From: a virus
Lineage: Duplodnaviria; Caudoviricetes
Length of the DNA stretch: 64,000 nucleotides
IMG/VR virus record: IMGVR_UViG_3300037313_001869
Coordinates: 352,001-416,000 of that record
Reading direction: 5' to 3' (one strand)
Under the pieces are notes generated by a model. That model worked only from the letters and a program-made list of their open reading frames with translations, was not told the DNA's origin and searched no databases. Shown piece by piece: positions 50,315-50,932 of the stretch. Each line of letters starts with the position of its first letter. Within the stretch, counting starts at the first letter, position 1. Made by a program: the position numbers and the translations under genes.

Positions 50315-50932
50315 ATGCTCGTCGACTTCGCCGCAGAACCCCTGCTCATCCCCGACCCCTACCCCCGGGTCGTGGCCTTGCGTCTCTACGGGAGCGATGC
50401 CACGGCCCGCATGTTCGATGAGCGCGAACCGCTCGACGACATCACCATGGAGGGCGACGACAGCACCCTCTTTTTCATCGACGCCAGCGACCTCCGCGGG
50501 GGCGGCCCGTGGTTCTTCGAGGTCATGACCCAGCGGGCGAACCACCGCTACAGCCGCTTCGTCGTCGAGCTACACCTTCACAGCTACGATCGCGAGGGCA
50601 TCGAGCCCGACATACATCGGCTCGTGATCCGCCAGGGCAAGGCGAGTTTCTCGACCCTCCTCTACGACTTCGGAGCCGAGGGCGACGAGGTACCGGTGGC
50701 GGCTGACGTGGGGGATAGCCAAGGAGAAGACGAGGCCATGGCGGTGCTGTTCCCCCCGGAGCCGCCTCCCGAGCCGTTGCAGGCGACCATCCAACGGTCT
50801 CTCCCGGCCCGTTTCTATCCGCGCACAGTCCTGAGCGAAGTCCCCGACGACGCCGAGGTTATCGAGGAATGGGAGCCCGGGTTCGCCCCGAAGCGTAAGC
50901 GGACACGATTCGACCGCGAAGGGCCGCTCTTA
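50315..50932 (+). CDS. RFDR-tail array protein 32, ends at TTA
   Basis: TRFDREGPL then TTA; track ORF runs on antisense to the next gene. Confidence 0.75.

Follow-up and report, generated by a model that had tools for sequence, protein, structure and literature searches.

The locus described here raises the question of whether a gene can be closed by TTA, a leucine codon in the standard code. It lies in the window of 64,000 nucleotides that was analysed (positions 352,001 to 416,000 of the IMG/VR virus record IMGVR_UViG_3300037313_001869), which belongs to a complete virus record of 435,218 bp from a soil phage, with direct terminal repeats and a GC content of 64.8%. At 50930-50932, the reading frame of a small gene (gene 32 of an array whose products share a C-terminal tail) reaches a TTA that is, on the opposite strand, the TAA of a convergent gene. 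According to the data presented below, gene 32 very probably ends at this TTA, and UUA would function as a fourth stop codon, and not as leucine, both in the phage and in the infected cell.

Gene 32 and the triplet shared with a convergent gene

The features of the junction are collected in Table 1. The first-pass annotation had reported that the triplet 50930-50932 is shared with the TAA of the gene at 52054-50930. This can be read directly on both strands, so that the observation stands and the description of the site is exact.

Table 1. Features at and around the junction (window coordinates).
Feature	Position	Strand	Basis and remarks
Shine-Dalgarno-like GGGGAGG	50299..50305	+	Read from the sequence; ends 9 nt before the ATG at 50315
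Gene 32 of the tail-bearing array, protein P0002, 205 codons	50315..50929	+	Translation; orphan, acidic
C-terminal tail R-F-D-R-E-G-P-L	50906..50929	+	Usual register of the array, 8 codons before the stop
Shared triplet: TTA (+), stop of gene 32 as read here; TAA (-), stop of P0001	50930..50932
P0001, 374 aa plus TAA	50930..52054	-	Conserved in very large phages; third-position GC 0.85-0.97
Shadow open frame, codon-aligned antisense of P0001	50933..52180	+	Non-coding; third-position GC 0.53-0.70
Remaining array, 21 small genes ending R-[FY]-[DEG]-R-x-x-x-[LIV]	33648..50313	+	All closed by TGA or TAG; gene set of this analysis

The ATG of gene 32 is located 1 nt past the TGA of the upstream array gene, and its GGGGAGG sits within the codons for the G-E-V of the tail of that upstream gene. 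The C-terminal end of the encoded protein reads ...KRKRTRFDREGPL, with the last codon closing at 50929. If TTA is a stop, the product consists of 205 aa, while read-through to the next canonical in-frame stop, which is found 416 codons downstream and ends at 52180, yields 621 aa; the product sizes announced in the first-pass annotation (about 205 versus about 620 aa) agree with this frame. The third-position GC of the gene 32 frame is 0.75-0.93 until about 50880, and after 50932 it falls in the + frame to the values given in Table 1 for the shadow open frame. Neither a terminator nor a notable hairpin was found at the junction.

Gene 32 matches no Pfam family, and no homologue was found in IMG/VR or among 5.8 billion proteins of near length. 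It also lacks a paralogue in the phage genome, where nothing except its tail is common to other genes. The C-terminus of this protein is therefore identified by the tail alone, and the absence of a homologue makes an orthologue test impossible at 50930-50932.

The tail as a marker of the C-terminus

The genes of the array on the + strand are small and mostly unrelated to one another, and the region that they occupy also holds a few tail-less genes on both strands. A six-frame scan of the whole genome with the strict form of the tail, R[FY][DE]Rxxx[LIVMF], gave 59 matches. The claim that the tail marks the C-terminus is borne out by these matches, since the tail occupies the 8 codons before a canonical stop (TGA, TAG or TAA) in 49 of them. 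The next codon is TTA in one match, which is gene 32, and another codon in the remaining 9; three more of the 59 reach a stop 1-2 codons later. Given the frequency of in-frame TTA (0.49 per 1000 codons), chance alone would place about 0.005 TTA after the 10 matches that lack a canonical stop directly behind them. In the called genes, the 8-residue register is present in 33, 32 of which end in TGA, TAG or TAA; the 33rd is gene 32, which shows the 8-residue tail of the family if TTA is taken as its stop. Two looser tails of 10 residues, encoded elsewhere in the genome, likewise end at TTA. The codons of the tail vary synonymously between copies (CGN/AGG, TTC/TTT, GAT/GAC), which indicates that the tail is conserved at the protein level.

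This junction had been regarded as the cleanest internal control for termination at TTA. Such a description is adequate for the class of genes with the strict 8-residue tail, but the tmRNA tag and the orthologue ends described below are at least equally clean.

Two other properties of these peptides were observed. The codons GGG GAG GTC CTC, which encode G-E-V-L in the tail, also provide the following array gene with its Shine-Dalgarno sequence, and the ATG of that gene comes after, or overlaps, the TGA of the gene before (50299-50313 and other array ends). In addition, a related motif, T-R-[FY]-D-R-I, appears near the N-terminus of several proteins, for instance in M-A-T-R-F-D-R-I-A-G-D (sites at window 12664 and 10230, both on the minus strand, and at genome positions 283197 and 423827). 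As these sites are close to N-termini, the short peptide is not exclusively a C-terminal tail.

The convergent gene P0001 and the open frame antisense to it

The convergent gene encodes a protein, P0001, with 43 homologues at E <= 1e-5, most of them on contigs of very large phages, with a maximum identity of 39%. These relatives are not syntenic with this locus, and P0001 itself matches no Pfam family. All 16 aligned proteins of the family hold a W-K-x-x-P-L-P-K-E-G-D block near the C-terminus, and they end 7-30 residues past it (n = 16), P0001 doing so 8 residues past. Judging from this alignment, P0001 is a genuine gene with a natural end, fixed by 15 homologues. As this conserved gene needs a TAA on the minus strand, a base-calling error at 50930-50932 is unlikely. 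The alignment also revealed four invariant residues (C229, C232, H250, and C265) in a block G-T-C-P-x-C-F-x-N-x-K-L ... L-H-G ... G-x-C, which looks like a predicted zinc-binding site.

The frame of gene 32 continues open past the TTA because P0001 contains no TTA, CTA or TCA codon, which are the codons that would appear as stops on the + strand in this register. From the codon frequencies of the genome, the chance that a gene of 374 codons lacks both CTA and TCA is about 35%. The long open frame on the + strand beyond 50932 carries no information.

TTA in the genome of the phage

Standard-code open reading frames (ORFs) of the phage were called by length and by a GC3 > GC1 > GC2 pattern, which resulted in 349 ORFs with 95,513 codons. 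They include only 47 in-frame TTA (0.49 per 1000 codons), while TTG, at 4.6 per 1000, is a normal leucine codon. The few TTA codons are not evenly distributed, as 40% of them fall in the last tenth of the ORF versus 10% expected (binomial p 4.3e-8). For the next most end-skewed codon, this proportion is 19%. TTA in the two other frames is found in the last tenth in 14% and 12% of the cases, and this lack of skew indicates that base composition near gene ends does not account for the position of in-frame TTA.

When the in-frame TTAs were read individually, GC3 was seen to fall after those located near the C-terminus, while those at the N-terminus lie upstream of an obvious start, in 5' extensions. 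Most of the TTAs in the middle of an ORF are followed within a few codons by an ATG and a plausible N-terminus, that is, they sit between two genes in the same frame; a DnaJ domain and a full DUF4419 domain are examples of what is encoded just past them. A few in-frame TTAs are flanked by high GC3 on both sides, and homology gave no assignment for these. In 20 TTA-bearing standard-code ORFs, no Pfam domain spanning the TTA was found. The gene for aspartate carbamoyltransferase offers a well-defined end: its TTA at residue 342 is 1-5 residues from the aligned ends of solved PDB chains, and it is also shared with a converging TAA. At the level of sequence, TTA was thus found at the places expected for stops and nowhere within a demonstrable gene interior.

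Once TTA is added as a stop, 514 genes are called, and 60 of them (about 1 in 9) are closed by TTA. In this gene set, a single TAA/TTA triplet is shared at 10 of 65 convergent junctions, among them 50930-50932. On this sequence evidence, the junction under study is one instance of what appears as a genome-wide code change. Another tight convergent junction, of a different kind, was observed at 39299-39302, where the bases T-T-A-G hold a TAG on the + strand (39300-39302) and a TAA on the - strand (39301-39299) with an overlap of 2 bases.

Two technical or mechanistic explanations for the position of the TTAs were rejected. A +1 shift at TTA onto TAG or TAA does not apply, since the base after many TTAs, among them that of gene 32 (TTA C), is neither A nor G. 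The ORF caller is not the source of the skew either, as out-of-frame TTA is flat and a control phage described below gives 19%.

A second phage with the same property and a control phage

A pattern scan of IMG/VR for a tmRNA tag ending L-A-A-TTA led to a second phage, IMGVR_UViG_3300031576_000001 (G063; loci L211 and L214-L230), of 322,633 bp and 58.6% GC. It has 126 of the 514 proteins in common with the phage of this study, at a median identity of 44%, and it lacks both the RFDR tails and a P0001 homologue. In G063, TTA is found at 1.29 per 1000 codons, versus 15.6 for CTA and 16.7 for TTG, and 60% of the in-frame TTAs fall in the last tenth of the ORFs (p 5e-36), with 11% and 7% out of frame. 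High GC alone was consequently rejected as the reason for the rarity of TTA, given that CTA, CTT, and TTG are each used 14-17 times per 1000 codons in G063, while TTA is used 1.3 times and is skewed toward the ends.

The ends of orthologues were compared in 85 pairs of proteins from the two phages whose alignment reaches the C-terminus. A TTA in the first phage stands against a canonical stop in G063 in 7 pairs (4 at the identical position), a canonical stop in the first phage against a TTA in G063 in 24 pairs (many at offset 0), and TTA is present in both in 5 pairs. When TTA is taken as a stop, the orthologues end within 5 residues of each other in 72 of the 85 pairs, while the standard code would extend G063 proteins by up to 132 residues.

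The negative control was a distant relative found via P0001 (G001; loci L012-L031), a 407-kb contig with a GC content of 60%. This phage encodes its own tRNA-Leu(UAA), and TTA is used along its genes (103 in-frame). As only 19% of these TTAs are located in the last tenth of the ORFs, the method does not create the skew. TTA is still the most end-enriched codon in G001 with this 19% (n = 103).

tmRNA, tRNAs, and release factors of the phage

The tmRNA of the phage (Rfam RF00023, 78.8 bits) is encoded on the minus strand at genome positions 269912-270439. Tags of tmRNAs normally end ...L-A-A, as do those of three control genomes (G059, G062, and G030). In the phage, the tag is ANDNFAASPALAA (...ALAA), which is followed by TTA, and the first canonical stop appears 6 codons later. 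The tmRNA of G063 (52.8 bits) also encodes a tag, ANDNVEAAPLALAA, which is followed by TTA.

A total of 44 tRNAs were predicted in the phage with ARAGORN, including those for Leu with anticodons CAA, GAG, and CAG, and tRNA-Leu(UAA) is absent among them. G063 has 39 tRNAs, including Leu CAA, CAG, GAG, and TAG as well as Ile TAT, and in this set tRNA-Leu TAA is likewise absent. Six-frame searches of the first phage for an RF-1 or PCRF domain gave no match. With neither tRNA-Leu(UAA) nor a release factor of the phage, termination at UUA would have to use a factor of the host.

Both phages also have a tRNA with anticodon CUA, which reads UAG, yet both genomes end many genes in TAG. In the first phage it is 90 nt long (L047 1932-2021, minus strand; genome 331932-332021), it scores 58 bits to the tRNA model, and ARAGORN labels it Pyl.

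Candidate hosts

When 185,579 species genomes were scanned for tags with L-A-A-TTA at their end, 42 matches were obtained, of which exactly one is located within a tmRNA. This match belongs to the Polyangiaceae MAG SJ398 (G002), whose tag, ANDNAVPFALAA (...ALAA), is followed by TTA. A second Polyangiaceae MAG (G042) holds a tag ...FAVAA that is likewise followed by TTA, while in G018 no tmRNA was found. In the relatives with an ordinary RF2 (G059, G062, and G030), the tag ANDNAIALAA is closed by TAA or TGA. Among 60 members of the family, the RF2 of G042 (75%) and that of G018 (72%) are nearest to the RF2 of G002, and none of the others exceeds 65%. A tRNA search of the candidate hosts, whose MAGs are incomplete, located tRNA genes by position and gave no anticodons.

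In G002, only 13 in-frame TTAs were found in 747 kb. That of malate synthase A is located 3 residues past the last aligned residue of PDB 3cux and 3cuz, and without a stop at this TTA the protein would carry a run-on of 72 residues. In a Kef-type antiporter, the TTA is placed 7 residues past the TrkA_C domain. The mid-gene TTAs of the control G059 look like ordinary leucines.

The recognition loop of RF2 reads HRFVRISP[YF]DS[EQ]G in G002, G042, and G018, versus HRLVRISPFDANA in 27 relatives. In E. coli numbering, the three genomes share L201F, and the two with TTA-closed tags (G002 and G042) also carry F207Y in the SPF motif. The recognition loop of RF1 is nearly unchanged in the candidate hosts. 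The Ser204 substitution of organellar RF2 (see below) does not seem to be present, as the serine of the SPF motif, which may be the residue in question, is kept. Apart from these changes, RRQT[SA]F replaces RRHTSF in the RF2 of 26 of 30 sampled Polyangiaceae (L091 = G002:C133; L102-L130). This motif is seen with or without a TTA-ended tag, so that the His-to-Gln change is a trait of the family that is not tied to the code change.

No DNA similarity was detected between the phage tmRNA and those of the candidate hosts, and it thus provides no direct link to a host. The searches with the phage RecA and with an AAA ATPase of the window returned no related loci.

Proposed mechanism and alternative explanations

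According to these data, it is proposed that the TTA terminates the translation of gene 32, which would release a protein of about 205 residues with the usual C-terminal tail of the array. As TTA is the reverse complement of TAA, the TAA of P0001 would double as the stop of gene 32, and the two genes would abut with neither a spacer nor a true overlap. Release at UUA would be carried out by a factor of the host, for which the best candidate may be the RF2 of the small group of Polyangiaceae with TTA-closed tmRNA tags. The phage seems to follow the code of its host and not to diverge from it. In a wider scheme, a free-living clade of Polyangiaceae (myxobacteria) and its jumbo phages would share a four-stop code, a modified release factor of the host (probably RF2) would recognise UUA, and stops readable in both directions as TTA/TAA would let converging genes abut. 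This scheme is somewhat favoured by the data. It would represent the first sense-to-stop change in any cellular genome outside organelles, and also the first in a virus.

The claim of the first-pass annotation that TTA terminates is supported by the skew of TTA, the loss of GC3, the tmRNA tag, aspartate carbamoyltransferase, the exchange of stops between orthologues, and the absence of tRNA-Leu(UAA) from both phages. UUA could instead be an unassigned (hungry) codon that no tRNA reads, at which stalled ribosomes would lose the peptide through rescue (tmRNA or ArfA/ArfB-type) or drop-off, with no release factor recognising UUA. This would be consistent with the lack of tRNA-Leu(UAA) in both phages, with the fact that no release factor was found in the phage and no release-factor change has been confidently tied to UUA, and with the existence of unassigned codons in bacteria, such as CGG in Mycoplasma capricolum, which is cited in PMC8629427. 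Nevertheless, it is unlikely, because 60 of the 514 genes end in TTA, including those for RecA, aspartate carbamoyltransferase, and large conserved proteins that need efficient and untagged release. Moreover, the tag frame of the tmRNA is itself ended by TTA in two phages and two bacteria, so that rescue by tmRNA would meet the same codon.

Two other explanations are still less probable. If TTA encoded leucine, gene 32 would be read through the antisense of P0001, and the RFDR motif would come to lie in the middle of a product of about 621 residues. This is highly improbable, even though the standard code leaves the frame open as far as 52180 and RFDR-like motifs are not exclusively C-terminal. 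The third-position GC of the + frame collapses after 50932, the codon-aligned antisense strand of a GC-rich gene can be open by chance (about 35%), and a fully overlapping antisense gene of 1.25 kb would be extraordinary; besides, the phage has no tRNA for UUA, and the orthologue ends give TTA as a stop elsewhere in the genome. Least probable of all is an accident restricted to this site, by which gene 32, as a decaying last member of the array, lost its stop or a base was miscalled. Its position as the last gene of the array and its lack of a homologue would fit with decay, but its start, ribosome-binding site, coding GC3, and tail are all intact. The bases are very likely right, since the triplet must be TAA for the conserved P0001 to have a length that matches that of its homologues, and nine more convergent junctions show the same arrangement.

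Relation to other deviations from the standard code

Codons without an assignment are also exemplified by rare codons of Micrococcus luteus. Like CGG of Mycoplasma capricolum, these are rare codons without a cognate tRNA in genomes of biased composition, and a comparable state is a plausible evolutionary intermediate toward a UUA stop. However, the codons of M. capricolum and M. luteus are merely avoided, while TTA is here placed at the ends of genes and closes tmRNA tags. Unlike in bacteria of extreme composition, the rarity of TTA in G063 is not attributable to base composition (GC 58.6%).

Several large phages are known to recode stop codons, with TAG or TGA being read as an amino acid by means of suppressor tRNAs of the phage. 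They resemble the phage of this study in having a code that differs from table 11 and many tRNAs. Nevertheless, the direction of the change is the opposite, from stop to sense in those phages and from sense to stop here, and the phage described in this study ends many genes in TAG in spite of its UAG-reading tRNA.

All described cases of a change from sense to stop come from organelles (PMC12574857). UUA and UCA are stops in the plastids of peDinoflagellates, which was called the first sense-to-stop change outside mitochondria (PMC12574857, 2025), and the use of UUA as a stop in organelles has been linked to a substitution of Ser204 in RF2 (PMC12574857). These plastids and the mitochondria of Labyrinthulea/Thraustochytrium (NCBI table 23) show the same change of the same codon, from leucine to stop. 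They hold tiny gene sets, in contrast to the carriers described here, which are jumbo phages of about 500 genes and, as it seems, also free-living Polyangiaceae whose genomes measure 6-7 Mb. In the mitochondria of Marsupiomonadales and Pseudoscourfieldia marina, where a leucine codon has likewise been taken over as a stop, UUA and UUG both terminate translation, which has been ascribed to a modified mtRF1a (PMC12574857, PMC6551751). Contrary to these mitochondria, in which both UUR codons change, TTG stays leucine here and both phages have a tRNA-Leu(CAA), and the RF1 loop of the candidate hosts is almost unchanged.

In a search of full-text literature, no article describing UUA or TTA as a bacterial or phage stop codon was found. 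The Codetta screen of bacterial genomes infers the amino-acid meanings of codons and reports those that are uninferred (PMC8629427); by our reading, a codon that had gone from sense to stop would appear among the latter.

Significance

The junction at 50930-50932 is useful because it combines a readout by size (205 versus 621 residues) with a marker, within the protein itself, of where the true C-terminus lies. Should a bacterial clade and its phages use UUA as a stop, gene calls made with table 11 would be wrong at roughly 1 in 9 genes, the errors being run-on or fused proteins such as the products of 621 or 665 residues called for this junction. A bacterial system would then be available to study a release factor able to read U in the second position of the codon, and the code would also act as a barrier to the host range of phages.
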